From IMG/VR virus record IMGVR_UViG_2541047798_000010: 43,320 bases of DNA. One strand, 5' to 3'. A program made the position numbers and the translations under genes. The stretch is from a virus (taxonomy: Duplodnaviria; Heunggongvirae; Uroviricota; Caudoviricetes). This document shows positions 6,609-40,525 of this stretch, in pieces (the stretch's first letter is position 1; each line of letters starts with the position of its first letter). The notes beneath the pieces were generated by a model that was given only the letters and a program-made list of their open reading frames with translations, ran no database searches and was not told the origin of the DNA.

Positions 6609-6623
6609 TTACCTTTCGGGTAA
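6609..6623. promoter_or_regulatory. Operator-type palindrome TTACC-N5-GGTAA (copy upstream of LexA-controlled gene, in divergent region with tailspike)
   Basis: ATTACCTTTCGGGTAAT; perfect match to the motif found at OR and OL. Confidence 0.6.
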
Positions 6624-6660: not shown

Positions 6661-6680
6661 TACTGTATAAACATACAGTT
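6661..6680. promoter_or_regulatory. LexA (SOS) box
   Basis: TACTGTATAAACATACAGTT: CTGT-N8-ACAG core intact, 17 of 20 positions match TACTGTATATATATACAGTA; 20 bp upstream of ATG 6700. Confidence 0.75.
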
Positions 6681-6699: not shown

Positions 6700-6957
6700 A
6701 TGCAGCAGTATCACTATCCACTGGAAGACGGATTTACCGAAAGGATTCACACGCCGGGAGGCGTCAGGTCACTGGTGGAGGGATCGCACTTGATGAAATT
6801 ACTCCGGGATCTCGATAAGGATGGATTTAATGTCGATGGCCCACTTGCCGAACTGACTGCACTGATTAACTACGTCACCAGCTCACAGATGTCTATGCAG
6901 GATCTACAAACACATCTCGACTATTGTGCCGAACAATTACGAAAACAAACCAGATAA
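6700..6957 (+). CDS. Small standalone antirepressor-effector-domain protein (homolog of the C-terminal domain of the two Ant paralogs); SOS-controlled candidate antirepressor
   Basis: 85 aa from ATG 6700 (RBS GGAG 8 nt upstream); aligns with Ant C-terminus (IH-P-GV...LM-LL...DG-V-G-AELT...DLQTH-Y); LexA box immediately upstream. Confidence 0.65.
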   Translation: MQQYHYPLEDGFTERIHTPGGVRSLVEGSHLMKLLRDLDKDGFNVDGPLAELTALINYVTSSQMSMQDLQTHLDYCAEQLRKQTR

Positions 6958-6988
6958 GATTTGAAATTACCAATAGGAGTGCTTATAT

Positions 6989-7003
6989 TTACCTTTGCGG
7001 TAA
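6989..7003. promoter_or_regulatory. Operator-type palindrome TTACC-N5-GGTAA sitting in the loop of a hairpin (AGGAGTGC/GCACTCCT) at the outer edge of the left ant arm
   Basis: TTACCTTTGCGGTAA; mirrored by the copy at 10028. Confidence 0.6.
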
Positions 7004-7094
7004 ATTTACATCGCACTCCTCTTGTGCCATAGTAATCGGGCACTGGCAAAATCCAGTGCCGGGATTGGCGTCCCGGGTTACTAAGTGGCGCATA

Positions 7095-7117
7095 CCACGC
7101 CAGACGTGGTTTTTTTA
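7095..7117 (+). terminator. Rho-independent terminator inside the ant1 leader
   Basis: Stem CCACG/CGTGG followed by TTTTTTTAT; preceded by two further stem-loops (GGCACTGG/CCAGTGCC and CCGGGA/TCCCGG). Confidence 0.55.
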
Positions 7118-7272
7118 TGCGTTAAGCACAGCTATATCCGAATTATGGTGGGCTGGGCAGGGGTCCGAAAGGACGCCGGTACCACTTAGGCCGGTACGCC
7201 AACCTTGTCCAGTTCACCACCAGTAATTGGCGTTGCGGTGGTGATTAAAATCACTAAGTGGAGATAACCACC

Positions 7273-7983
7273 ATGGCTAATGCTCAAACTGCCATCTTCA
7301 AATTTGAATCTGTTAACCCTATCCGTTCCATCATTATCGATGGCCAACCATGGTTTGTAGCCCAAGACGTTTGTAGTGCGCTGCGTATCCAAAACGTCAC
7401 CCAAGCACTTGAAAAACTGGATGATGATGAAAGGTCTATGTTCAACATAGGGCATGAACATCGTGCAATTTTTGACAGCCGAGTAAAAGAGATCAACATT
7501 ATCTCCGAGTCAGGCCTCTACACACTGATCCTCCGCTGCCGCGACGCAGTGACACCAGGCACTATCCCCTACCGCTTTCGTAAATGGGTTACAGGTGAGG
7601 TTCTTCCTCAGATCCGCCGCACCGGAAGTTACATTAAAAACTCGCTCCCGCAGGAAGAACGCATAAAGATGGTTGCCGACCAGGTAGCCAACGCCACAGC
7701 ATCAGCAGTGATGCAGGCAATGAAGATAGAGAACAAAACCTACAGCGCCCCGCTGAAGCCCGGCTACCGCAGCCTGATTCATTCGCCGTCTGGTGTTCTC
7801 GGCCTGACGGAGAACTCACTGCTGATGAATCTGCTGAACCAGTTACAGGAAGACGGGCACGATGTATCGGGCGCGGCGGCGGAGCTGACCACCATGTTTT
7901 GCTACATCGTTGGTGTGAGCAAATGCCTGCGTGATATCCAGACGCACGCGGAGTACATCAACGACAAGGCTGGGTTCTTCTGA
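7273..7983 (+). CDS. Antirepressor paralog 1 (Bro-N-like N-terminal domain plus shared C-terminal effector domain)
   Basis: 236 aa from ATG 7273 (RBS GGAG); N-terminal IFKFESVNPIRSIIIDGQPWFVAQDVCSAL is Bro-N/KilA-N-like; C-terminal half nearly identical to paralog 2. Confidence 0.8.
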   Translation: MANAQTAIFKFESVNPIRSIIIDGQPWFVAQDVCSALRIQNVTQALEKLDDDERSMFNIGHEHRAIFDSRVKEINIISESGLYTLILRCRDAVTPGTIPYRFRKWVTGEVLPQIRRTGSYIKNSLPQEERIKMVADQVANATASAVMQAMKIENKTYSAPLKPGYRSLIHSPSGVLGLTENSLLMNLLNQLQEDGHDVSGAAAELTTMFCYIVGVSKCLRDIQTHAEYINDKAGFF

Positions 7984-8010
7984 CGGGCGGCGGCACAGGG
8001 ATGTGCCTTT
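7585..8010. repeat. Left arm of a near-identical inverted repeat (about 425 bp) covering the 3-prime half of ant1 and about 25 bp beyond its stop
   Basis: Reverse complement of 9045-9470 matches with only scattered substitutions; mirrored antisense ORFs 7634-7819 and 9232-9417 have near-identical translations. Confidence 0.8.
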
Positions 8011-8055: not shown

Positions 8056-8070
8056 TTACCTTACGGGTGA
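8056..8070. promoter_or_regulatory. Imperfect operator-type site upstream of the cargo gene
   Basis: TTACCTTACGGGTGA (one mismatch in the right half-site). Confidence 0.4.
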
Positions 8071-8107
8071 TCCATAGCGATTAGGCACCGATACAGGAGG
8101 AGCCCAC

Positions 8108-8140
8108 ATGAGAAAATTTGACGAGTACGAAGGCGTTTAA
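8108..8140 (+). other. 10-codon upstream ORF (MRKFDEYEGV) with strong RBS, followed by a terminator-like hairpin at 8161-8184; candidate attenuator leader for the cargo gene
   Basis: AGGAGG 7 nt upstream of ATG 8108; hairpin GGGGCC-ATTA-GGCCCC then GTTTTCAT; cargo start at 8200. Confidence 0.3.
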
Positions 8141-8199
8141 CATTCGGATAGTTTAATGACGGGGCCATTAGGCCCCGTTTTCATGTCTGGAGACAGTTT

Positions 8200-8739
8200 G
8201 TGTTAAGTGAAGAAATGCAATTTGCCATGGCTGTGGCTCAAATCGTAAGTGCAGTCGCGGTTTCGCTTGGCTTGTTCATAGCTATCGCTACTATTATTTA
8301 TAATGTAAATACAGCGAGAAAAGTACACACTTCAGTATTCCTTGGTGAAAGCAGGTTTGATGTAGATTATAAGAAAGGCCTATCTACTATGCGCCGCATT
8401 CACGAGTCGAACAAATCATTCCGCTCTTATATGTATCCAAGCAATGGGCAGGCTGATCTTACGGATGAAGAAAAGATAGAGAAGAGAGAAATAATTTACT
8501 GTCTAGGTTTCTACGAACGCATGGCTGTGAGCGTGAAGCGGAAAACTTATGATGAGACCATGATTAAGGAAGTATTTTACAGCTCCGTTGTAAATAACTA
8601 TCAGATTGCGCTACCTCTTATACAAGCTATTAGAGAAAAAGAAAACATAAACACATATTTTAAAGAATATGAATGGTTAGCCACACGATGGAAGGATTGT
8701 CCATTGAAGGACAAATCCCCGTGGTACAAGTTTTGGTAA
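8200..8739 (+). CDS. Membrane-anchored protein of unknown function; AT-rich cargo between the inverted ant genes (candidate superinfection-exclusion or abortive-infection protein)
   Basis: 179-aa ORF with GTG start at 8200 (GGAG 7 nt upstream) or ATG 8215; single N-terminal TM helix; markedly AT-rich; 3 of the first 8 Arg codons are AGA/AGG; followed by a strong terminator. Confidence 0.6.
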   Translation: MLSEEMQFAMAVAQIVSAVAVSLGLFIAIATIIYNVNTARKVHTSVFLGESRFDVDYKKGLSTMRRIHESNKSFRSYMYPSNGQADLTDEEKIEKREIIYCLGFYERMAVSVKRKTYDETMIKEVFYSSVVNNYQIALPLIQAIREKENINTYFKEYEWLATRWKDCPLKDKSPWYKFW

Positions 8740-8762
8740 GCCCGCAGCGCGGGCTTTTTTGT
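8740..8762 (+). terminator. Rho-independent terminator after the cargo gene
   Basis: GCCCGC-AGC-GCGGGC followed by TTTTTTGT directly after the TAA stop. Confidence 0.7.
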
Positions 8763-8832
8763 GGACGAAACAAAAGTCAGTGCTACACTCATTGACGCCA
8801 CATTGAGGTGGCTTATAGATGGAAATTTCACA

Positions 8833-8994
8833 ATGAAAAAAGCATTTGCTGCACTGTTCGTTTTGTTGTCTCTGGTAGCTTCAACTCAGGCCTTTGCCGG
8901 TCGTTGTCAGCACGACAGCGACACTGCTGCTGACGGCTCCCGCTGCGGTGGGCGTTCTGCGGATTCCCGCCCTGGCGGCGGTGGCATTCGTTAA
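8833..8994 (+). CDS. Possible small secreted Gly-rich peptide (53 aa); weak call
   Basis: Internal ATG of track ORF 8761-8994; predicted signal peptide MKKAFAALFVLLSLVASTQAFA; no convincing RBS. Confidence 0.3.
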   Translation: MKKAFAALFVLLSLVASTQAFAGRCQHDSDTAADGSRCGGRSADSRPGGGGIR

Positions 8995-9017
8995 AAACAA
9001 GGCCGCGAAAGCGGCCT
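8991..9017 (-). terminator. Rho-independent terminator for ant2
   Basis: Minus-strand stem GGCCGC-TTTC-GCGGCC followed by TTGTTTTTAA, about 50 bp downstream of the ant2 stop. Confidence 0.55.
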
Positions 9018-9018
9018 G

Positions 9019-9030
9019 TGACATGTCACG
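9019..9030. repeat. 12-bp perfect palindrome GTGACATGTCAC (copy 1 of 3)
   Basis: Exact 12-mer also at 28175-28186 and 30629-30640. Confidence 0.6.
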
Positions 9031-9044
9031 ATAGTTTCGTTTTG

Positions 9045-9470
9045 CACATCCCTGTGCCGCCGTTCTGTCAGAAGAACCCTGCTTTGTCGTTGATATACTC
9101 CGCGTGGGTCTGGATATCACGCAGGCATTTGCTCACACCGACGATGTAGCAGAACATGGTGGTCAGCTCCGCCGCCGCGCCCGATACGTCGTGCCCGTCG
9201 TCCTGTAACTGGTTCAGCAGATTCATCAGCAGTGAGTTCTCCGTCAGGCCGAGAACACCAGACGGAGAATGAATCAGGCTGCGGTAGCCGGGCTTCAGCG
9301 GGGCACTGTAGATTTTGTTCTCTATCTTCATCGCCTGCATTACTGCTGACGCCGTGGCGTTGGCTACCTGGTCGGCAACCATCTTTATGCGTTCTTCCTG
9401 CGGGAGCGAGTTTTTAATGTAACTTCCGGTGCGGCGGATCTGAGGAAGTACTTCGCCTGTAACCCATTCA
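9045..9470. repeat. Right arm of the near-identical inverted repeat (3-prime half of ant2)
   Basis: Reverse complement matches 7585-8010. Confidence 0.8.
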
Positions 9471-9760
9471 AGAAATCTGAATGCTCTCGTTCCCTCAGTC
9501 ATTGCCTCTTTGCAACGCAGAATAAGGATGTAGAGACCTGATTCTGAAACGATGGATAGTTCTTGTATTCCACCAGGGGTCTGTATTGAATACAGCCCCT
9601 TTTTGTTCCAGCCTTTTTTATCAAGTTTTCTCGCTTGTGTAACATCAATATTCAAAGCATTGCACACATCTTTGGTGACAAACCAAGGTTCTCCGTCAAT
9701 CATGAACATACGGATCTGGCAGGATGACTCAAAGGAAAAGATGGAAGGTTTGGTATTCAT
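9068..9760 (-). CDS. Antirepressor paralog 2 (Bro-N-like N-terminal domain plus shared C-terminal effector domain), inverted relative to paralog 1
   Basis: 230 aa from ATG 9760 (RBS AGGTGA); N-terminal domain diverged from paralog 1, C-terminal about 130 aa near-identical. Confidence 0.8.
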   Translation of the reverse strand: MNTKPSIFSFESSCQIRMFMIDGEPWFVTKDVCNALNIDVTQARKLDKKGWNKKGLYSIQTPGGIQELSIVSESGLYILILRCKEAMTEGTRAFRFLEWVTGEVLPQIRRTGSYIKNSLPQEERIKMVADQVANATASAVMQAMKIENKIYSAPLKPGYRSLIHSPSGVLGLTENSLLMNLLNQLQDDGHDVSGAAAELTTMFCYIVGVSKCLRDIQTHAEYINDKAGFF

Positions 9761-10027
9761 GGCGATCACCTTTGTAGTTAGGTTAATCACCACCGCTGAG
9801 ACCAATCAGATGGTGGTGAACTGTGCAGAGTTGGTCTTACCGGCTACAAAGGAACCCGGCGCACCTTTCGGTGCCCCCACACAGCCCACCATAGAATAGG
9901 TGCGCTTTACACATAAAAAAACCGCTTATGCGGCATATGTGCCTCTGTAGTAATCCGGGAGACCAATCCCGGCACTGGATTTTGCCAGTGCCTGATTACT
10001 ATGGCACAAGAGGAGTGCGATGTAAAT

Positions 10028-10042
10028 TTACCGCAAAGGTAA
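10028..10042. promoter_or_regulatory. Operator-type palindrome TTACC-N5-GGTAA at the outer edge of the right ant arm
   Basis: TTACCGCAAAGGTAA; mirror of the 6989 copy, with the same downstream stem-loops and terminator in inverted orientation. Confidence 0.6.
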
Positions 10043-10065
10043 TGATAAACGCTAAGAAATATTAA

Positions 10066-10189: not shown

Positions 10190-10543
10190 GTGCCATTCCA
10201 CGGCGCAGAGCTTTATGTTGTCAATCATAACGGCGAACCATACACCCCAATGAAACCTATCGTTGAAGGCATGGGTATGGATTGGGCTTCACAGTTTACG
10301 AAAATGAAGCAGCGGTTTAAAACCTGCATTGTGAAAATCACAATGCAGCTTCCTGGGGATGAACAGCGCCGTGAGATTATTTGTTTGGCACTTCGCAAAC
10401 TTGCTGGCTGGTTGCAAACCATCAGCCCTAACAAAGTCCGCCCTGAAATCCGCGAAAGTATTGAAACATCAACCGTATCGATATCGACACGGTTGATTAT
10501 GACGGTAACTTATTTCCGTGTGTCCTATTTCTCCCGCCACTAA
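10190..10543 (+). pseudogene. Possible gene remnant; ORF with GTG start and no RBS
   Basis: 117-aa track ORF; normal GC content, no ribosome-binding site, ends directly against the minus-strand AT-rich gene. Confidence 0.25.
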
Positions 10544-18934: not shown

Positions 18935-21405
18935 CAGAACCCACCAACAGTAAGGCGAGGAATAACGGCAAGAACAGACAGCGGCAACGGATCAAGCTGA
19001 CGGATTTTTACACGTCCGTTTTTGCCCCAGTTACTGTCCAGTTTCACTTCTACTTTTCCGGTAGCATCATCAACAGGATCATCGTAGAACTCGAATTCAC
19101 GCTGTGGATATTCGTACCATTTACCGCCGGGCGTAGTCGCCCAGATGCCGCGACTGGCATTCACAACCAGAGTAACGGAGGGGATCACCTGTTTTTTGTC
19201 CAGCAGCGTTTCCTGTCCGTTAATGTTGATATCCAGTGTTTCGAATTCAGCAGTTATTGGCAGGCCGATGTGCACTACAGCCCCCGGAGATTCCAGCGTG
19301 ACGGCACCTCCGGAAACCACTTTCTGTGGTTCCACGTTCGCATCAGAGAGAATGTTTACGGTCTGGCCTTCAAGATGAGACAGGCCTCCAAATGTCCGGC
19401 GCGCCATCTGCCAGTTCGTGGTGGCCACATTCCTGAGGGATGGCGGGACGTTCCTGTTAGCACGAACCACTACAGCGGTATTGCTGGTTACAGAAATAAT
19501 GTCGCAACGTAATTCTTTTGACACCTCATCGCCAGTATCAGGATCAGTTCCGGTATAAGGGAACTGTAGTTGCGCGCCGACATCACTACTGGTGAAGTAC
19601 GCACCACCAGAAACACTGATTGTATATTCCGCGCGGTAATCCCATTCGCCAGAACCACCAGTGATGGTCATCGTTCTGTCAGACGTATTTCTTCCATCAT
19701 AGCTAAGGCCAGAATCAACAAAGAAAGCATCTTCATCGCTGGTAAATAAACGGCTGGACAGTCGCTCGATGTATCTCACTGTTTGCCCGTTAACGGTTCG
19801 GTTAATGACGAAATACACCGCATCTTCATTGCCTTCGCTGATACTGCATGTGCTTTCATATTTTCCGGTACTGGACTGTGGTGCCCATGCAAAAACCTGT
19901 TGATCACGCAAATAGGTCATCACCAGTAATTTACCGTCATCACGAATGCAGAAGGCGCTGGAGTAAGGGACAATAGAGAAGCACCAGTCAACAATGCTGT
20001 GCTTCTGAAAAAGATGATTGGCAAGGATAGTAAGGTCGTTCCCCTGATAGCCGTCAACATCGAATGAGTAGGCCAGATCACGGACAACACTGCCTTTCTC
20101 CTGGACGAACAGAGCAATATTCGCCACGGCAATTGGTGGGACATTGCTCGAGCCATTTGATCCCTGAGAGCTGAATGCAAATGATGATGGGGTTAACACT
20201 TTGTTCTGGTCGCCGGTGATGACGTACTCACCTCCGGAAGTCAGCGCCACCAGAGAACCAACATCAATCAGGTGGCGGATCTCATTAACCTGACGCCCGG
20301 CATAGGTGTAGATAATTCTGTCGTCATCCTGCGTAGGATTGCTTTTGCCAAAATCCTTATAATCCCCGGTACGGCTGGCCCAGATAGTCTGAGGGAACGC
20401 AGTCGATGCGGCGAAGTAAAGACGCTGTTGATAATAAACAACAGTGCCAGGATAACCATTAACACTGTTCCAGGCATATTTAGCCCATTTATAGCTGGCA
20501 TTATCCTCGCCAACGACCTGCGAAGGGATATAGGAAATCACCTCAGCAGTTGCAGTAGTGCCATTTACAGCAGTTATACTGGCAATGCCAAAACCACTGT
20601 GCAGATACTCCCACTCAATGCCAGTATCATCATCACCGGATCCGCCCCAGCCATCCCATGATGTGCCTTCTGTATGCGAAGGGCGCAAAGTACCTGTTTT
20701 GCCTGCTGTAACGGCGCGATAGTAGTTACTGTCTGCACGGCGAATATCGCCAATCGACGTACTCTTACTGGTTTCCCATACCGGCACAGAATCCACTGCA
20801 GGCTGTTCCAGATAGAACAATTTGCCTACCTGCTCCGCGCCAAAAATAGAGGCGCTTGCCGTTAACGTAATTGTCCCGGTGCTGGCGCTGGCATAAACCG
20901 TCACTGACTCGTCAATATTGATATCTTCAAATGGCCCGTTCTTCGTTACCACATCAACCAGTTGCCAGTTGTCATGCGCATAGCGACGCAACTCTTTCGG
21001 CGGGTATGCCGGATGAACCAGCGTAAGCACGTCGGCGCTTTGCGTGAATTTAATTCGGAACAGATCGGCTTCAGTATATGGCGTGGCAATTTCATAAATA
21101 ACATTGCTGCTGTTCAGCACCAACGCACCATCTTTGATAACGCGCATGTACTGGTGTCCGAACTCCAGAGCATAGGTCTGAACCGTCGAGAACTGGAACG
21201 GGATCAGGCGGCATTTCCGATTTGGGTATTTGGCGGCACCGACAAAACGCGTACCAGGTCGATTCTCAACGCCGCCATACTGCCGCACGATAAAGTTATC
21301 GCACTTGCGCAATGCCACCTGGTACTTCGCCATGTCAATACGCCCGTACAACGACGGTCCAATCTCACCACCGGCAAAGCTGGGCTGGATCCAACTGATA
21401 GCCAT
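18934..21405 (-). CDS. Tail tubular protein B-like (nozzle), T7 gp12-like size and position
   Basis: 823 aa; follows a 202-aa gp11-sized protein; ATG 21405. Confidence 0.5.
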   Translation of the reverse strand: MAISWIQPSFAGGEIGPSLYGRIDMAKYQVALRKCDNFIVRQYGGVENRPGTRFVGAAKYPNRKCRLIPFQFSTVQTYALEFGHQYMRVIKDGALVLNSSNVIYEIATPYTEADLFRIKFTQSADVLTLVHPAYPPKELRRYAHDNWQLVDVVTKNGPFEDINIDESVTVYASASTGTITLTASASIFGAEQVGKLFYLEQPAVDSVPVWETSKSTSIGDIRRADSNYYRAVTAGKTGTLRPSHTEGTSWDGWGGSGDDDTGIEWEYLHSGFGIASITAVNGTTATAEVISYIPSQVVGEDNASYKWAKYAWNSVNGYPGTVVYYQQRLYFAASTAFPQTIWASRTGDYKDFGKSNPTQDDDRIIYTYAGRQVNEIRHLIDVGSLVALTSGGEYVITGDQNKVLTPSSFAFSSQGSNGSSNVPPIAVANIALFVQEKGSVVRDLAYSFDVDGYQGNDLTILANHLFQKHSIVDWCFSIVPYSSAFCIRDDGKLLVMTYLRDQQVFAWAPQSSTGKYESTCSISEGNEDAVYFVINRTVNGQTVRYIERLSSRLFTSDEDAFFVDSGLSYDGRNTSDRTMTITGGSGEWDYRAEYTISVSGGAYFTSSDVGAQLQFPYTGTDPDTGDEVSKELRCDIISVTSNTAVVVRANRNVPPSLRNVATTNWQMARRTFGGLSHLEGQTVNILSDANVEPQKVVSGGAVTLESPGAVVHIGLPITAEFETLDININGQETLLDKKQVIPSVTLVVNASRGIWATTPGGKWYEYPQREFEFYDDPVDDATGKVEVKLDSNWGKNGRVKIRQLDPLPLSVLAVIPRLTVGGF

Positions 21406-27201: not shown

Positions 27202-27216
27202 TTACCTTTCAGGTAA
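27202..27216. promoter_or_regulatory. Operator-type palindrome TTACC-N5-GGTAA upstream of the late operon
   Basis: TTACCTTTCAGGTAA; TTGACA hexamer at 27180-27185. Confidence 0.6.
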
Positions 27217-27538: not shown

Positions 27539-27615
27539 GTGGCATTAGCTCAGTTGGACAGAGCAACCGCCTTCTAAGCGGTTGGTCGCAGGTTCGAATC
27601 CTGCATGCCACGCCA
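27539..27615 (+). tRNA. tRNA-Arg (anticodon UCU, reads AGA), phage-encoded
   Basis: 77-nt cloverleaf: acceptor GTGGCAT/ATGCCAC, D-stem GCTC/GAGC, anticodon stem ACCGC/GCGGT with loop CTTCTAA, T-arm GCAGG-TTCGAAT-CCTGC, discriminator G and encoded CCA; differs from host argU. Confidence 0.9.
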
Positions 27616-29736: not shown

Positions 29737-30332
29737 TGATTGCCATCCTGACGTTCTTTCAGTCTCTTCCTGGCTGCCGCTATGCGATCAGCAATTGTCA
29801 CATTCACATTAACATCCAGGCGTTCTTTGAATGCGTTGACGTCGACGTGCTTACCAATCAGTTCGAGGTTCTTCACCTTGTCAGGCCATTTAATTTTTTT
29901 GAGGATGCCAACCAGCTCTTTCTCGTCTCCACGGCCTTCGAACATGTCGGCCAGTTCGAAACCTGTCAGGTACTGCCGCCAGACCTTAGGCCATTCCGAG
30001 ACCGGCTTGATGCTCATATCGTCGTTGAGAATGTCAATCACGTCCATCTGGTCGATCTCCACCAGGCGCATGAGAACGTAATCAGCACTGACGCGCATTC
30101 GTTTGTTGCGCTCCTCCATCAACTCGGCAATCCGTTTTTGAATGCGTTCATCGCGCATCATGACACTGGCTTTAACTGCCGCTGTATTTGGGGAGAATCC
30201 TGCGTTAATCGCAGCCTGAGTCTGGTTTTCAGGCGTTTGGATGTATGACTGGCAATAAGCCTCCTGCATTGCTGTTAGTGGCTTAAATTGCGTTGATTTG
30301 CGTTTATAGGTTTTAGGTTCAGCAGGCATCAT
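29733..30332 (-). CDS. terS: Terminase small subunit
   Basis: Start chosen at ATG 30332 (199 aa); the track's longer TTG-start ORF translates the operator-containing leader into an implausible TITTTVTITTVV N-terminus. Confidence 0.6.
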   Translation of the reverse strand: MMPAEPKTYKRKSTQFKPLTAMQEAYCQSYIQTPENQTQAAINAGFSPNTAAVKASVMMRDERIQKRIAELMEERNKRMRVSADYVLMRLVEIDQMDVIDILNDDMSIKPVSEWPKVWRQYLTGFELADMFEGRGDEKELVGILKKIKWPDKVKNLELIGKHVDVNAFKERLDVNVNVTIADRIAAARKRLKERQDGNQ

Positions 30333-30349
30333 AACCACCGTGGTAATAG

Positions 30350-30364
30350 TTACCGTTGTGGTAA
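30350..30364. promoter_or_regulatory. Operator-type palindrome TTACC-N5-GGTAA 18 bp upstream of terS
   Basis: TTACCGTTGTGGTAA, between a minus-strand terminator and the terS start. Confidence 0.6.
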
Positions 30365-34966: not shown

Positions 34967-34981
34967 TTACCCCTGAGGTAA
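34967..34981. promoter_or_regulatory. Operator-type palindrome TTACC-N5-GGTAA overlapping the RBS of the 34610-34963 gene
   Basis: TTACCCCTGAGGTAA, 4 bp from the start codon. Confidence 0.55.
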
Positions 34982-35028
34982 TTAAAAACCACATAAGACA
35001 CGAAATCAATAGATTTTAGAATATTTTA

Positions 35029-35043
35029 TTACCCAACAGGTAA
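35029..35043. promoter_or_regulatory. Operator-type palindrome TTACC-N5-GGTAA, second copy in the intergenic region downstream of the P-like gene
   Basis: TTACCCAACAGGTAA; a promoter-like TTGATT-N17-TTTAAT (minus strand) lies between the two sites. Confidence 0.55.
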
Positions 35044-35080: not shown

Positions 35081-35863
35081 TTACTTGATAAATCCTGCCG
35101 CCTTTCCCCGCCTGTATTCCTCCATCAGCCACTGCGCCGGTGTTATTCCCCCCAGGGTGGCGGCGTTAGGCATGCACCCGAAACTTCGCCCTGGTGGATG
35201 GTAAACGTCTCTCCCTGTATCCGGAGGTGTACTCATGGGTTCTGGCTTTGCCTGTATGCTGATCACCGGATCGGGTATCTGCTGTCCGGAAGCCACCTTT
35301 TTCGCCCAATCATCGAGCAGCCTGCGCGCGTGTTTCTCAACCTCAATCTCGCTAAGCTGGCGCTGATACATTGCACGGCGGGTATCACATACGACCCAGT
35401 ACATAACCGGATGTCGCCACGGGAATCTTTCGGGACCACCAGGATATAAACTTTTTTCCTTGCTGTACCGGTGAAACTCCGCCATCACATCGTCAATGGT
35501 GACGCCAAGAACCATCTTGCTGTCTTTACACCACTTGATAAATTGCCCTGGCGACGGCCAGAACGGAGATTCACTGGCGCGGGCGTGGCGCATACCAGCG
35601 TTAACCTGTTCCATTGTTGTGATCCCATTCTCCAGAAACGCAAGCATCCATTGTTTTCGAAATTCGTTTAGCTTTCCTTGCTCGCTGATAGCAGCGATGC
35701 TGCCTGGAAATGCAGCCTGTAACTGGACAAACATTTCGTTGAAAATTCTTGCAACCTGCTCCTTCTTTGCCCTTTCATCGTCAGCAGAAGCAACCGCCGT
35801 CGAGTGGTCATGCCCACCACGAAAGCGATCGTACTCATTAAGAAGTTCTGGAGTTGATTTCAT
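35081..35863 (-). CDS. Replication protein P-like (helicase loader)
   Basis: Start chosen at ATG 35863 (RBS GAGGTG); segment RKQWMLAFLENGITTMEQVNAGMRHARASESPFWPSPGQFIKWCKD closely matches lambda P (RQWVLAFRENGITTMEQVNAGMRVARRQNRPFLPSPGQFVAWCRE). Confidence 0.85.
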   Translation of the reverse strand: MKSTPELLNEYDRFRGGHDHSTAVASADDERAKKEQVARIFNEMFVQLQAAFPGSIAAISEQGKLNEFRKQWMLAFLENGITTMEQVNAGMRHARASESPFWPSPGQFIKWCKDSKMVLGVTIDDVMAEFHRYSKEKSLYPGGPERFPWRHPVMYWVVCDTRRAMYQRQLSEIEVEKHARRLLDDWAKKVASGQQIPDPVISIQAKPEPMSTPPDTGRDVYHPPGRSFGCMPNAATLGGITPAQWLMEEYRRGKAAGFIK

Positions 35864-36653
35864 CCCACACCTCATCTATCCAGTCAGTGTTATGCCAGTC
35901 AAGGCTCTTTCTGACTTCACCTGATTTCTGTCTACAGAACTGGATGCGCCTTGCCAGCTTCTGCTCCCACTGTGCCTGATGGTATGCCTTACCCTCAGCC
36001 ATCCAGTAAATTCTGAACTCTGCAAGTTCCTGTGCCGTTGGCAGACTGTCCAGGTAGATTCCCTGCAATGAGCTTTTCCGAAGAAAGTCATCTGATGGCT
36101 GCCATTGTTCATGCATGACAAATTTGCCTAATTGCCCTGGCCCACCAGGAGGAACAAAGTTATTCATCACGGCGTTGTTTGCGCCGGGGTCATGAGGCAC
36201 AGAATCCCCGGTTTTTGTCCTGCTCTCCCTCTCTTGGTTAAATGACTGGTTATATGACTGGTTCTGGATCCCGTTTTTGGGATCATTCAACATCCCGTTT
36301 TTGGGATCATTCAACATCCCGTTTTCGGGAACATTACCGTTTTCGGGTTCATTACACCCTTCTAGGTTGCCTTTAATGTTCCCGTTTTTGGTTATATTAA
36401 GAGAGAAAACCCGCACTCTTTTTGTCGCTCCCTTTCTCTCTCCGGTATCTGAAATAAGCCCCATTTTCATGAGCGATATAAGCCCGGCCTGCACGGTTTT
36501 TTTATTCAGGCAAGTGTCTTTAACGAGGCGTTCTATGCTGGGGTAGCAGAGGTTATATTCATCGGCTCTGTCAGCCATCGAGAGCAGTATGAGCTTTAAT
36601 GATGAGCTACCTGGATCTGTCTCCCAGGCCCAATCTGTTGCATGTCTGCTCAT
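35838..36653 (-). CDS. Replication initiator O-like protein containing the origin iterons
   Basis: 271 aa; RBS GGAG; N-terminal HTH-like domain; repetitive linker NDPKNGMLNDPKNG encoded by the iteron DNA; directly upstream of the P-like gene. Confidence 0.65.
   Translation of the reverse strand: MSRHATDWAWETDPGSSSLKLILLSMADRADEYNLCYPSIERLVKDTCLNKKTVQAGLISLMKMGLISDTGERKGATKRVRVFSLNITKNGNIKGNLEGCNEPENGNVPENGMLNDPKNGMLNDPKNGIQNQSYNQSFNQERESRTKTGDSVPHDPGANNAVMNNFVPPGGPGQLGKFVMHEQWQPSDDFLRKSSLQGIYLDSLPTAQELAEFRIYWMAEGKAYHQAQWEQKLARRIQFCRQKSGEVRKSLDWHNTDWIDEVWDEINSRTS
36267..36395. repeat. Origin-type iteron array inside the O-like gene
   Basis: Two exact 24-bp direct repeats (CATCCCGTTTTTGGGATCATTCAA, first copy starts GATCC) plus 2-3 degenerate copies with core CCCGTTTT(T/C)GG. 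Confidence 0.6.
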
Positions 36654-36668
36654 GATTAATCTCCGCTA

Positions 36669-36869
36669 TCAGTTTGAGTGTTGTGGGGAGGAATTAATCA
36701 TGATCTGCTTAATCTCTGCCCTGATGCGACGGTTTGATTCCATGGTGCACTCAACACAGTGTCCGTTGTAAACCCAGCGTTCACTGTCATGTCCATGCTT
36801 ACATGGTTTTCCGGTGTAGTAGCGTTTAAGTCCGCGCTTTGCGGCATCAATACGTGTAATGATTTCCAT
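36669..36869 (-). CDS. Small zinc-finger-like protein in the cII-equivalent position; function unknown
   Basis: 66 aa from ATG 36869; motif KPCKHGH...CVEC. Confidence 0.4.
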   Translation of the reverse strand: MEIITRIDAAKRGLKRYYTGKPCKHGHDSERWVYNGHCVECTMESNRRIRAEIKQIMINSSPQHSN

Positions 36870-36926
36870 GGTAAGCCCTGTTATTAGTATTGGGATTACG
36901 GTTATTTTGTGCTGACACAAAAAAAA

Positions 36927-36945
36927 GATCAACCAGATTTGGTTA
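36927..36945. promoter_or_regulatory. Second palindromic motif ATCAACCAnATTTGGTTA, copy 2
   Basis: GATCAACCAGATTTGGTTA, directly followed by an imperfect operator-type site at 36950-36964. Confidence 0.35.
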
Positions 36946-36949
36946 TTTA

Positions 36950-36964
36950 TTACCTTTGAGGTGC
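36950..36964. promoter_or_regulatory. Imperfect operator-type site upstream of the cII-position gene
   Basis: TTACCTTTGAGGTGC. Confidence 0.4.
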
Positions 36965-36970
36965 GAATAG

Positions 36971-36997
36971 ATATGAAAAGACCGCCGGGTGGCGGTC
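36971..36997 (-). terminator. Rho-independent terminator immediately after the cro-like gene (tR1-like position)
   Basis: Minus-strand stem GACCGCC-ACCC-GGCGGTC followed by TTTTCATAT. Confidence 0.5.
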
Positions 36998-37019
36998 TAC
37001 AGAGGGTTGTGACTGGATA

Positions 37020-37250
37020 TCATGAGTAGAAGAAGTATGCCAGTTCTGCTTTTGAGCGCAGCCATTGTCTTGTTTTACAGGCTTTAAAAAGCCCATTCAT
37101 CAATACTTTACCTGGCATTTTGCGCTTACCTGTTAAGTGAGTCTGGATATAGTGACTCGTCGTTCCGGCTTCCTGTGCGAAGGCTTCACGCTCATCCGGA
37201 GTAAGTGCAAGCCAGTGCTTTTTGAAATCGAAATGTCCGTTATCGCTCAT
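37020..37250 (-). CDS. Cro-like small DNA-binding protein, divergent from the repressor
   Basis: 76 aa; position opposite the repressor across a three-operator region. Confidence 0.55.
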   Translation of the reverse strand: MSDNGHFDFKKHWLALTPDEREAFAQEAGTTSHYIQTHLTGKRKMPGKVLMNGLFKACKTRQWLRSKAELAYFFYS

Positions 37251-37286
37251 AGCTATTGCCTGATATTTATTTCAGATAATAAATAT

Positions 37287-37349
37287 TCACCCATAAGGTA
37301 ACAAAAATCAAGGATAGTTACCTATGAGGTGCATTTACCTGTTGGGTAA
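37287..37349. promoter_or_regulatory. OR-type operator region: three operator-type sites between the cro-like and repressor genes
   Basis: TCACCCATAAGGTAA (37287-37301), TTACCTATGAGGTGC (37318-37332), TTACCTGTTGGGTAA (37335-37349); minus-strand promoter-like TTGATT-N17-GAATAT with the first site inside the spacer. Confidence 0.7.
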
Positions 37350-37404
37350 TATTGCTTTAAATTGAATCATCTACTGATTCATATATGAGGCGATTTTCCA
37401 GAAA

Positions 37405-37989
37405 ATGAAAAGTATCCAGGACGTCCGCAGGCAAAATCTCAACGACTTGATCGACCGTGAATTCAATGGTGTTCAGACGCGGATGGCAGAAAAACTTGGA
37501 ACTCAGGCAAATCTGGTAAACCGCTGGGCTCTTGGCAAGAAGGTTATCGGCGACCAGGTTGCACGAAAAATTGAAGCTGCCGCCAATAAACCCCGTAACT
37601 GGCTTGATATTGATCGTTCGCTTTCTCAGGAGGGTTTTCAGCCTGTCGGCCCGAGCGATATAGGTCAGTTGGCGGCTCACAACCTGGAACGCTGGATGAG
37701 CGAAAGCCGCGACCTTTCAACACAGGGAAAACTTCACCGCGCATCCGGCGTCGCCCAGGTGACAATCAGCCGCCTGTTAAACAATGAGGTCAGCGTTTCC
37801 ATTTCCACTCTGGAGAATGTTGCATCCGCATTCGGGCGTCACGGATATGAACTACTGATTCACCCGCACGACCCTGCGACTATCAACTATGACCGCTCAC
37901 GCTACGCATTGTTACCCGAAACCGAGAAAGCAAAGATCGAAAGTTACATTGAATTTGTCATCAACCAGAACGAAAAAAGCAAACAATAA
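37405..37989 (+). CDS. Prophage repressor with two tandem HTH (XRE-type) domains and no LexA-like autocleavage (S24) domain
   Basis: 194 aa; HTH-like segments near aa 20-60 and 95-150; divergent from cro-like gene; own terminator downstream. Confidence 0.7.
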   Translation: MKSIQDVRRQNLNDLIDREFNGVQTRMAEKLGTQANLVNRWALGKKVIGDQVARKIEAAANKPRNWLDIDRSLSQEGFQPVGPSDIGQLAAHNLERWMSESRDLSTQGKLHRASGVAQVTISRLLNNEVSVSISTLENVASAFGRHGYELLIHPHDPATINYDRSRYALLPETEKAKIESYIEFVINQNEKSKQ

Positions 37990-38010
37990 AACTATAGTTT
38001 TCAGTAAGTA

Positions 38011-38036
38011 AGCCGCCTCATGGCGGCTTTTTTATT
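38011..38036 (+). terminator. Rho-independent terminator after the repressor gene
   Basis: AGCCGCC-TCAT-GGCGGCT followed by TTTTTATT. Confidence 0.7.
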
Positions 38037-38046
38037 GCCAGATAGA

Positions 38047-38123
38047 TTACCTTACGGGTAATTTTTTTAACTCATATCTATTGACACTAAACCAAATAAG
38101 CATAATTATTACCTCAACGGTAA
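38047..38123. promoter_or_regulatory. OL-type region: two perfect operator-type sites flanking a sigma70-like promoter for the plus-strand recombination operon
   Basis: TTACCTTACGGGTAA (38047-38061); -35 TTGACA (38081-38086), 17-bp spacer, -10 AATTAT; TTACCTCAACGGTAA (38109-38123) starts right after the -10. Confidence 0.65.
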
Positions 38124-38142
38124 CAGACCGAGGTAACAAGTT

Positions 38143-38295
38143 ATGCAGTGGAAAATCATCAACGGTTGGTACTGCGTTACTGCATGCGGATTCATGAGCT
38201 GGAAGTTCCGCACCTTACAGGAAGGCATTAAGTGGGCTTTCGTCAGCAAAGAAGCTCGCGATGTAGCCAACGATAACGAGATATGGGAGGGCTGA
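38143..38295 (+). CDS. 50-aa Trp/Cys-rich small protein, first ORF after the OL promoter (not in ORF track)
   Basis: RBS GAGGT 9 nt upstream of ATG 38143; stop overlaps the RBS of the next gene. Confidence 0.3.
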   Translation: MQWKIINGWYCVTACGFMSWKFRTLQEGIKWAFVSKEARDVANDNEIWEG

Positions 38296-38297
38296 TA

Positions 38298-38597
38298 ATG
38301 AACGTTAATCAGCAGAAAAATCTTCAAAAAATCATGCTGGCATTCGACAAGGACTACCGCCTGTCAGAACAGCTATATGACCGACAAGTTGAACTGATTG
38401 AGAGCATCCGACTTCATCAACTGTCCTCAACTTTCGACGTTGTAACAGGCAAAGGCGTTCGTCAGGAAGTGCTGGAGGCTGCTAAAGACAGCCCTGAGTT
38501 CGAAGAACTGATGGATTCCTACCGGCGCGAGGCAATGGCAATTATCGCCCGCTGGGATCTGGCGGATCGGATTGATGGGCAGAGGGAAGCGGCATGA
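38298..38597 (+). CDS. Hypothetical early protein
   Basis: 99 aa from ATG 38298 (RBS GGAGGG 7 nt upstream); ATGA coupling to the exonuclease gene. Confidence 0.5.
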   Translation: MNVNQQKNLQKIMLAFDKDYRLSEQLYDRQVELIESIRLHQLSSTFDVVTGKGVRQEVLEAAKDSPEFEELMDSYRREAMAIIARWDLADRIDGQREAA

Positions 38598-39493
38598 TGC
38601 AGAACGCTGGAATCATGGATAGAACAAAATACATCGGAGGAAGCGATGTTGCAGGGATTCTTGGAATTAGCCCATGGCGCACCCCGCTTGAGGTTTATCT
38701 GGATAAGGTCCAGCCACGTGTCAAACCAGTAGACCCAAGCAAGCAGAAAGTTTTCACGCGTGGCCAGCGTATGGAGCCATACGTAATAGACCTGCTTTCT
38801 GAGGAAACAGGGATGGAAATCGTTCATCGCGGAAACCGCTATATCCACCGTGATTACGATTTTATTGCAGCTGAGATCGATGCAGAAGCAGCGTCAGGCG
38901 AGAACATTGAGATCAAAACAGTTAGTCCGTTCAAAGCCAAAGAATGGGGAGAAATCCAGACAGATGCAATTCCTGTGCATTACACGGCCCAGGCCATGCA
39001 CGGGTTGATGGTTACAAACAAACAGGTATGCGTTTTCGGTGTGCTTATCGGTGGCGACGACTTCCGAATCTATCGGGTTGAGCGTGATGAAGAAACTATC
39101 CAGGCGATCTTAGAAAAAGAAATCGCTTTCTGGGACCGAGTGAAAAATCTTAACCCGCCGGAAGCTACCAGCGTAAGCGATGTATCGCTGATGTTTGAGA
39201 AAGATGCCGGGACAAGTATCGAGGCTGACGGAAAGGCACTCGCACTATTCAACGATCTACGAGACATGAAGTCACGCAGAAAATCACTGGAAGAAGAAAT
39301 AGCTATATCAGAAGAGAAGCTGAAGATGTACATGCAAGAGCACTCAGTCCTGACCCTGGACGGAAAGCCGCTCTGCACATGGAAATCTCAGATCAGCAAC
39401 AGATTCGACCAGAAGCTATTCCAGTCAGTACACCCTGAGTTATTCGAAAAATTCAAAACAACAACGACACAACGCGTCTTCAGAATGAAGTAA
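38594..39493 (+). CDS. YqaJ-like recombination exonuclease (PD-(D/E)xK)
   Basis: 299 aa; N-terminal YIGGSDVAGILGISPWRTPLEVY typical of YqaJ/lambda-Exo-like exonucleases; paired with RecT. Confidence 0.8.
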   Translation: MMQNAGIMDRTKYIGGSDVAGILGISPWRTPLEVYLDKVQPRVKPVDPSKQKVFTRGQRMEPYVIDLLSEETGMEIVHRGNRYIHRDYDFIAAEIDAEAASGENIEIKTVSPFKAKEWGEIQTDAIPVHYTAQAMHGLMVTNKQVCVFGVLIGGDDFRIYRVERDEETIQAILEKEIAFWDRVKNLNPPEATSVSDVSLMFEKDAGTSIEADGKALALFNDLRDMKSRRKSLEEEIAISEEKLKMYMQEHSVLTLDGKPLCTWKSQISNRFDQKLFQSVHPELFEKFKTTTTQRVFRMK

Positions 39494-39502
39494 GGAGAAA
39501 AA

Positions 39503-40525
39503 ATGTCTATCAATGCACTTAAGGCAGCGGCTACCGGTAACCAAGTTGCACATCATAATGAGAAACCAACAACTCTGGCCGGACTTCTGGCAGACCCAAA
39601 AATTAAAGCTCAGATGGCTTTGGCACTTCCAAAGCACATGACAGCAGACCGTCTGGCGCGCATAGCAACCACAGAGATCAGAAAGGTTCCAAAACTTGCA
39701 TCATGCGACCAAGCCAGCTTCCTGGGGGCAATTATGCAATGTGCCCAATTGGGTCTTGAACCAGGCGGAGCTCTTGGACACGCTTACCTGATACCGTTCG
39801 ACAAACGCCAGAAAGTAAATGGAAGATGGGAAACCGTATCTACAGAAGCACAGCTGATTATCGGCTATCGCGGAATGATTGACCTTGCCCGCCGCTCTGG
39901 GCAGATCCTGAGTATCTCGGCTCGTACCGTACATACAAACGACAAATTCAGCTACTCATACGGCCTGGAAGAAACGCTCGAGCATTTACCTTGCGAAACA
40001 GGTGACCGCGGAGAATTAACGCACGTTTACGCCGTTGCACGACTGAAAGATGGCGGAGTCCAATTTGAAGTTATGAGCCGGGCAGACGTTGAGAAAGTTC
40101 GTGCACTGAGCAAAGCCGGTAGCAGTGGCCCATGGGTTGATCACTTCGATGAGATGGCTAAAAAAACAGTAATTCGCCGACTGTTCAAATATCTTCCTGT
40201 TTCTATTGAAATGCAGAAGGCTGTTGTTATGGATGAGCGCGCTGAAGCTGGACTTAGCCAAGATAACGCAGCTGTTATCACTGGTGAATATTCCGTAGTT
40301 GACGATGAGCGTCAACACCTGTCGCCAATTTCAGATTCAGAACGAGAAGAAGCTCGAGAATATATCATCGCGATACTTAATAGCCTGGATCCATCTGCTG
40401 AAGATGCAAAAACGATGTTCAAGCGCGCTGAAAATGAAATTAACACCATGGCTGAAAAGCTCGGTGATGAATATCACCAAAAATTCATGATGACGCTTAA
40501 CGATATGCGTCCAGAATTCGAGTAA
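39503..40525 (+). CDS. recT: RecT-family single-strand annealing protein
   Basis: 340 aa; RBS AAGGAG; follows the exonuclease gene; RecT-like core. Confidence 0.85.
   Translation: MSINALKAAATGNQVAHHNEKPTTLAGLLADPKIKAQMALALPKHMTADRLARIATTEIRKVPKLASCDQASFLGAIMQCAQLGLEPGGALGHAYLIPFDKRQKVNGRWETVSTEAQLIIGYRGMIDLARRSGQILSISARTVHTNDKFSYSYGLEETLEHLPCETGDRGELTHVYAVARLKDGGVQFEVMSRADVEKVRALSKAGSSGPWVDHFDEMAKKTVIRRLFKYLPVSIEMQKAVVMDERAEAGLSQDNAAVITGEYSVVDDERQHLSPISDSEREEAREYIIAILNSLDPSAEDAKTMFKRAENEINTMAEKLGDEYHQKFMMTLNDMRPEFE

Follow-up and report, generated by a model that had tools for sequence, protein, structure and literature searches.

The stretch of DNA analysed here, referred to as the window, comprises 43,320 nucleotides and is assigned to the genus Uetakevirus (epsilon15-like podophages) with E. 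coli as host. Positions 36900-38300 are 97-98% identical to Escherichia phages phiV10, PAS61, ZX5, HEMP4, and TL-2011b. The region 37287-38123, which starts with OR1 and ends with OL2, controls the choice between lysis and lysogeny in an E. coli phage of the phiV10/epsilon15 type. An earlier note on this DNA had described a lambda layout in mirror image, and the open reading frames and domain searches agree with this description: rep and the exo/RecT genes are encoded on the plus strand, the cro-like, DnaT-like, and lambda P-like genes on the minus strand (Table 1). The divergent rep and cro-like genes are accompanied by a tripartite OR and a bipartite OL. Lambda CI/Cro shares the divergent arrangement of repressor and cro, the tripartite OR, and an OL with several sites; in both phages, the recombination operon is read from the same strand as the repressor gene and the replication operon from that of cro. 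The three operator-type sites at OR and the two at OL were recovered where they had been placed before, and the terminators claimed for the repressor and cro-like genes are present as hairpins with T-runs, both of which are annotated in phiV10.

Table 1. Features of the immunity region and further operator sites in the window. Mismatches refer to the motif TTACC-N5-GGTAA; a dot indicates that no strand is assigned.
Feature	Position	Strand	Description
operator	6609..6623	.	exact; between the divergent tailspike and ant genes
predicted LexA box	6661..6680	.	TACTGTATAAACATACAGTT; 17/20 to consensus; 20 bp before the ant ATG
ant	6700..6957	+	85-aa antirepressor, orthologue of SPC32H Ant
operator	6989..7003	.	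exact; adjoins the -10 of TTGAAA-17-TATATT, driving isrK, C4, and the Bro-N::Ant gene 7258-7983
operator	8056..8070	.	1 mismatch; adjoins a TACTAT -10; upstream of cargo gene 8200-8739
operator	10028..10042	.	exact; operator for Bro-N::Ant gene 9068-9805 (-), in an inverted duplicate of the 6989 module
operator	27202..27216	.	exact; between the gp3/portal block (-) and the tRNA-Arg side (+)
operator pair	30332..30364	.	30350 exact, 30332 with 1 mismatch; 18 bp apart; immediately before the small-terminase start codon
operator pair	34967..35043	.	34967 and 35029, both exact; 62 bp apart; flank TTGATT-17-TTTAAT; after the P-gene terminator
replication genes	35081..36653	-	DnaT/HTH_36 protein (35838-36653) and lambda P-like protein (35081-35875); Pfam domain search
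cro-like gene terminator	36979..36998	-	intrinsic; G+C-rich hairpin and T-run
cro-like gene	37020..37250	-	76 aa; first gene of the PR operon; ORF list
PR	37276..37311	-	promoter-like core in front of the cro-like and replication genes; consensus scan (37304-37276) and alignment
OR1	37287..37301	.	TCACCCATAAGGTAA; 1 mismatch; inside the core of leftward PR
OR2	37318..37332	.	TTACCTATGAGGTGC; 2 mismatches
OR3	37335..37349	.	TTACCTGTTGGGTAA; exact; best-matching OR site
rep	37405..37989	+	194-aa repressor; ORF list, domain search, PDB search, structure model
rep terminator	38010..38036	+	intrinsic; G+C-rich hairpin (38010-38029) and T-run
OL1	38047..38061	.	exact; PL -35 lies 19 bp downstream
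PL	38081..38109	+	predicted promoter TTGACA-17-AATTAT; 10/12 consensus match
OL2	38109..38123	.	exact; first base is the last base of the PL -10; centre 62 bp from that of OL1
PL operon	38143..40525	+	two small genes, YqaJ-type exonuclease (38594-39493), RecT (39503-40525); domain search

The operator motif is a 15-bp palindrome, TTACC-N5-GGTAA, and it is the five sites flanking rep that make up OR and OL. The half-sites of OR1 are unchanged in an alignment with phiV10, Tyrion, and epsilon15. The centre of OR2 is 31 bp from that of OR1 and 17 bp from that of OR3, and the epsilon15 counterpart of OR2 matches the motif exactly. The core of PR can be read in two ways, as TTGTTA-17-TATTAT or as TTGATT-18-AATATT, and the alignment shows a conserved AAAAATCAA block at this promoter. 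The -35 element of PL is unchanged in Tyrion and epsilon15.

The consensus scan found no promoter for rep. A weak candidate found by eye is TTACCT-17-TAAATT; its TAAATT (37358-37363) is the only -10-like element that is conserved in the alignment. The candidate -35 overlaps OR3, and such an arrangement would lead to negative autoregulation rather than to activation of the lambda type. As far as this weak candidate can be relied on, we take it to suggest that Rep is purely negatively autoregulated via OR3.

The cro-like protein matches phrog_35 'transcriptional repressor' with an E-value of 5.6e-13, and this PHROG family is its only match, as searches of Pfam, NCBIfam, and PDB sequences gave none. 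Just 3' of the terminator of its gene is a weak operator-like site (TTACCTTTGAGGTGC, 36950-36964, 2 mismatches). It precedes a 66-aa gene (36669-36869) and may represent an extra control point in the PR operon.

At the distal end of the PL operon (38594-40525), the YqaJ-type exonuclease and RecT are encoded by two ORFs in the window and also in epsilon15. The phiV10 record has one CDS, termed 'recET fusion', at the equivalent place.

The repressor Rep

Rep is 99.5% identical to phiV10 p40 and to ZX5 ORF21. The phiV10 record labels it as 'putative transcriptional repressor, two helix-turn-helix motifs', and a Pfam search gave two HTH matches, one to HTH_3 (aa 106-147, E 1e-9) and a sub-threshold one of the YdaS/Cro type (aa 21-61). 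When compared to PDB sequences (phmmer), Rep matches the repressor of Salmonella phage SPC32H (5D50_A) over aa 1-190 (E 3.5e-42, ~43% identity) and also 5D4Z, the crystallised C-terminal fragment of that protein. An AlphaFold model, built on 36 homologues and with a mean pLDDT of 75, consists of a four-helix HTH domain (aa 4-59, approximately 1-60), a disordered linker (60-82), a five-helix XRE-like domain (~83-151), and a helical tail (164-193). Foldseek searches with this model returned 5D50 and 5D4Z as top hits (TM 0.76, C-terminal part), followed by generic XRE HTH proteins. The recognition-helix segment NLVNRW is common to the Reps of the window phage and of epsilon15, and N36, R40, and W41 are invariant across 36 Rep homologues.

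The earlier note had called Rep a tandem-HTH repressor. Two HTH-like domains are indeed present, but the second is most likely a dimerisation domain and not a second DNA reader, because its homologue SPC32H Rep is described in this way. The relevant passage of PMC9986798, which cites Kim et al. 2016, assigns DNA binding to the N-terminal domain, dimerisation to the middle domain, and tetramerisation together with Ant binding to the C-terminal domain. It is the middle domain with which the strong Pfam HTH_3 match coincides. According to a statement in PMC9638917, SPC32H Rep is a tetramer on DNA and is split into dimers by tetrameric Ant.

If Rep were to read DNA as a genuine tandem-HTH protein, each monomer would touch DNA with its two HTH-like domains and would read composite or paired sites directly instead of by oligomerisation. 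This would fit the fact that the second domain provides the best Pfam HTH_3 match and has a five-helix XRE-like fold in the model, and also the frequent pairing of operators, with spacings of 17, 18, or 62 bp. However, it conflicts with the functions which the cited passage gives for the middle domain and the C-terminal tail of the homologue, and a simple 15-bp palindrome with only one kind of half-site suits a dimer having one HTH per subunit. We consider such a dual reader to be highly improbable and treat the second domain as a dimerisation domain in what follows.

The claim that the repressor lacks a peptidase-S24 domain was confirmed. The Pfam search gave no Peptidase_S24 match even at E<=10, and the model is all-helical, with no beta-rich protease-like part. 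A cryptic S24 domain, which was considered separately, was rejected on the basis of the Pfam search, the AlphaFold model, and Foldseek. In this respect Rep differs from lambda CI, and cleavage upon RecA stimulation is not expected; operator spacings differ from those of lambda as well. Induction of the lambda type, by RecA-stimulated self-cleavage of Rep via a cryptic catalytic domain, would have the general lambda-like gene layout as its one point in favour. Against it, all 194 residues are covered by helical domains which are homologous to SPC32H Rep, and the window encodes an Ant orthologue with predicted LexA control. Self-cleavage is so improbable that we disregard it in favour of inactivation by Ant.

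Putative repressor operators across the window

Exact matches to TTACC-N5-GGTAA were counted 10 times in the 43.3-kb window, while 0.00 were expected from 100 dinucleotide shuffles. Outside OR and OL, exact sites start at 6609, 6989, 10028, 27202, 30350, 34967, and 35029. Near-matches start at 8056 and 30332, in addition to the weak one at 36950. All strong operator sites are intergenic. The description as a lambda-like switch holds for OR, OL, and the divergent genes but does not cover the operators at about eight other intergenic sites: lambda operators are confined to OL and OR, whereas those of the window phage are also found at late and accessory promoters. Judged from their positions, these promoters appear to be repressed directly by Rep and not through a cascade as in lambda.

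Many of the sites share a common geometry. At seven of them (38109+, 34967-, 6989+, 10028-, 8056+, 30350-, and 27202+), the first T of the operator doubles as the final base of a -10-like hexamer. PL and the promoter downstream of the P gene are built to one plan, in which an operator is followed by 19 nt, the -35 element, 17 nt, and a -10 element that overlaps a second operator; as a result of this plan, the two operators are 62 bp apart. Downstream of the operator at 27202 and of a promoter-like site, TAGATA-18-AATTAT, a tRNA-Arg gene (anticodon TCT) is found at 27539-27615 on the plus strand, between the terminase and portal blocks.

The motif occurs at equivalent positions in epsilon15, in Tyrion, and in Klebsiella phage BUCT711. 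In these three phages, too, sites within OR are spaced by 17 bp, and pairs with a spacing of 62-63 bp occur at OL and downstream of the replication genes, the latter being the counterpart of the 34967/35029 pair. The operators in the ant region of ZX5 match those of the window. No operators are annotated in the phiV10 and ZX5 records. For epsilon15 (repressor gp38), the GenBank record (AY150271.2) labels seven such sites as 'protein_bind repressor', and the consensus, ATTACC-N5-GGTAAT, is the same. In position, the epsilon15 sites agree with those of the window phage at the terminase, gp3, tailspike/ant, and OL as well as downstream of the replication genes, and the 62-bp and 17-bp spacings also recur. 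Annotations exist for the counterparts of the 6609 site (19895-19911, as a repressor binding site) and of the 27202 site (2931-2947); the terminase operator pair has its counterpart at 12-27. There are also differences, as epsilon15 has three OL sites compared to two in the window phage, its operator centres are more A/T-rich, and for one additional epsilon15 site, ahead of the lysis genes, no equivalent was found in the window.

In four additional genomes (epsilon15, Tyrion, BUCT711, and ZX5), the half-sites TTACC and GGTAA are constant while the 5-nt centre is free to vary. Three of these phages have diverged Reps (epsilon15 43%, BUCT711 45%, and Tyrion 78% identity) and were compared in the expectation of diverged operators, as a test for co-variation. 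None of the three shows an operator change that parallels the divergence of Rep; the half-site is identical, and the comparison thus yields conservation only. A half-site that stays constant despite Reps with 43-45% identity fits the conserved NLVNRW helix. One specificity is kept by Reps down to 43% identity in phages of Escherichia, Salmonella, Enterobacter, and Klebsiella.

As an alternative to Rep, the cro-like protein or another regulator could recognise the palindromes that lie beyond OL and OR, or these palindromes could form RNA hairpins with a 5-bp stem at transcript 5' ends, since many of them begin at about +1 of predicted promoters and so would be transcribed. However, in sequence they do not differ from the operators of OR and OL, such sites are ascribed to the repressor in the epsilon15 record, and constant half-sites with free centres are the mark of sequence-specific DNA recognition. 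The RNA-hairpin reading was rejected, as stems never co-vary while loops vary freely. Overall, we consider it very unlikely that these palindromes serve anything other than Rep, and they are treated as putative Rep operators below.

In a lysogen, Rep would read TTACC-N5-GGTAA by its N-terminal HTH and oligomerise via its middle and C-terminal parts. When bound to OR1-3, it would shut PR, with OR1 being inside the PR core, and thereby silence the cro-like and replication genes. When bound to OL1-2, it would shut PL and the recombination genes, with OL2 covering the PL start. It would also occupy about eight further intergenic operators. RNA polymerase would be occluded at the seven operators that overlap a -10-like hexamer by one base.

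Antirepressor and induction

Ant matches the crystallised SPC32H Ant (5D50_E) with an E-value of 4e-47 over aa 2-84 and ~87% identity, and it is 84% identical to epsilon15 gp19. The core of the predicted LexA box, TACTGTATAAACATACAGT, is found identically upstream of epsilon15 gp19. Other CTGT-N8-ACAG matches in the window were rejected as LexA boxes as they lack the flanking consensus, and only the one at 6661-6680 looks genuine. Kim and Ryu reportedly established in 2013 that ant is under LexA control and that Ant inactivates Rep without cleavage. The epsilon15 repressor is said to have been identified genetically, by Kropinski et al. in 2007.

The SPC32H Rep/Ant system (PDB 5D50, 5D4Z; Kim & Ryu 2013; Kim et al. 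2016) resembles that of the window phage in full-length homology of Rep, in the close similarity of Ant, in a LexA box before ant, in a repressor without S24 domain, and in belonging to the genus Uetakevirus. Rep of the window phage has diverged: when aligned with epsilon15 Rep, its N-terminal domain is ~50% and its C-terminal part ~42% identical. In contrast to the Salmonella phage SPC32H, the window phage has E. coli as host, and its genome contains two genes for Bro-N::Ant fusions, both preceded by isrK/C4 leaders. The orthology of Rep and Ant together with the LexA box supports the antirepressor-based induction that had been predicted earlier.

We are confident that the immunity switch of this phiV10-like Uetakevirus works as a Rep/Ant system of the SPC32H type. 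This assessment draws on sequence features, on their conservation in four related phages, and on the homology of Rep and Ant to a crystallised pair. Binding of Rep to its sites, of LexA to its box, and of Ant to Rep is what we infer from the work on SPC32H and from the overexpression of the ZX5 repressor, by which lysis-gene transcripts were reduced by more than 99.9% and free phage was abolished (PMC9782041). Upon DNA damage, LexA would be cleaved and leave the box upstream of ant, and Ant would be made. Ant would then bind to the C-terminal part of Rep and break up the oligomer, so that Rep comes off the DNA.

Ant has 84-87% identity to its epsilon15 and SPC32H orthologues, compared to 43% for Rep (~42% in the C-terminal part). 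Compatibility of Rep and Ant is assumed for the window phage, with a C-terminal half of Rep that has ~42% identity to that of epsilon15 and an Ant with ~84-87%. As Ant is far more conserved than Rep across the genus, one Ant may act on several types of Rep. From the sequences, this suggests that related prophages could be cross-induced.

In the ZX5 record, the orthologue of ant (1801-2058) is annotated as 'hypothetical protein', and in the published ZX5 study, the Bro-N protein (ORF4) was taken as the antirepressor (PMC9782041). The LexA-controlled Ant appears to have been overlooked in that phage.

Gifsy prophages (PMC3121763), coliphage 186 (Tum), and N15 (AntC) follow the same induction logic, in that repressors which cannot be cleaved are inactivated by small antirepressors of the SOS regulon, but the proteins are unrelated to those of the window phage and the mode of repressor inactivation differs. 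Rco/Rap of pLS20 (PMC9986798) has an N-terminal DNA-binding domain and a C-terminal tetramerisation module and is relieved by a protein partner. It is, however, a conjugative-plasmid system that has no middle dimerisation domain and no SOS link.

Nothing in the switch itself is new, as the Rep/Ant pair has already been studied and crystallised in Salmonella phage SPC32H, and the understanding of prophage induction is unchanged. What is gained for phiV10-like phages is detail: an operator map, a common -10/operator geometry, and the 62-bp pairs. The main value is in annotation. Phages of this type are employed against E. coli O157, both as reporters and in biocontrol, and a map with about 15 putative Rep operators, an ant gene under predicted LexA control, and isrK/C4-Bro-N::Ant modules would be useful for engineering non-lysogenic or non-inducible derivatives.

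Bro-N::Ant modules and neighbouring genes

The window contains two inverted antirepressor modules (6978-7984 and 9067-10053), with repeat arms of 504 nt (89% complementary) and 106 nt (92%). In each module, a Rep operator adjoining a promoter is followed by an isrK RNA (RF01394), a C4 antisense RNA (RF01695), and a Bro-N protein. According to Rfam, with scores above the gathering threshold, isrK is found at 7040-7116 and 9915-9991 and C4 at 7141-7224 and 9809-9896. The leader of the antirepressor genes thus contains both C4 and isrK RNAs, as in P1 immI-like and Gifsy-1 isrK-type systems. The C-terminal ~80 aa of both Bro-N proteins are homologous to the small Ant (phrog_450). ZX5 has the isrK/C4-Bro-N::Ant module in a single copy, with the same isrK/C4 leader.

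Two possible refinements of the Rep/Ant scheme may be put forward, which taken jointly we regard as tentative and rather doubtful. The first is a feed-forward loop, in which LexA-gated Ant would remove Rep and thereby derepress the two Rep-controlled Bro-N::Ant genes (7258-7983 and 9068-9805). The fusion proteins would add more antirepressor, or antirepressor with a broader spectrum. If true, this would make the decision irreversible or would allow an infecting phage to induce related resident prophages. The second concerns the 62-bp operator pairs which bracket PL and the post-replication promoter. One Rep tetramer, with two pairs of DNA-binding domains, could clamp such a pair and would then enclose the promoter in a very small loop.

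Between the inverted modules is a cargo segment (8056-9066). It codes for a 179-aa protein of unknown function (phrog_2284) with a hydrophobic N-terminus, followed by a terminator (8738-8756), and may represent a Rep-controlled accessory or defence gene. A small ORF in this segment (8761-8994) has a signal-peptide-like start. Beyond the second module, a 117-aa ORF (10190-10543) matches only the N-terminal ~90 residues of Ant-type antirepressors with ~317 aa (phrog_524) and, from its sequence, is probably a truncated remnant.
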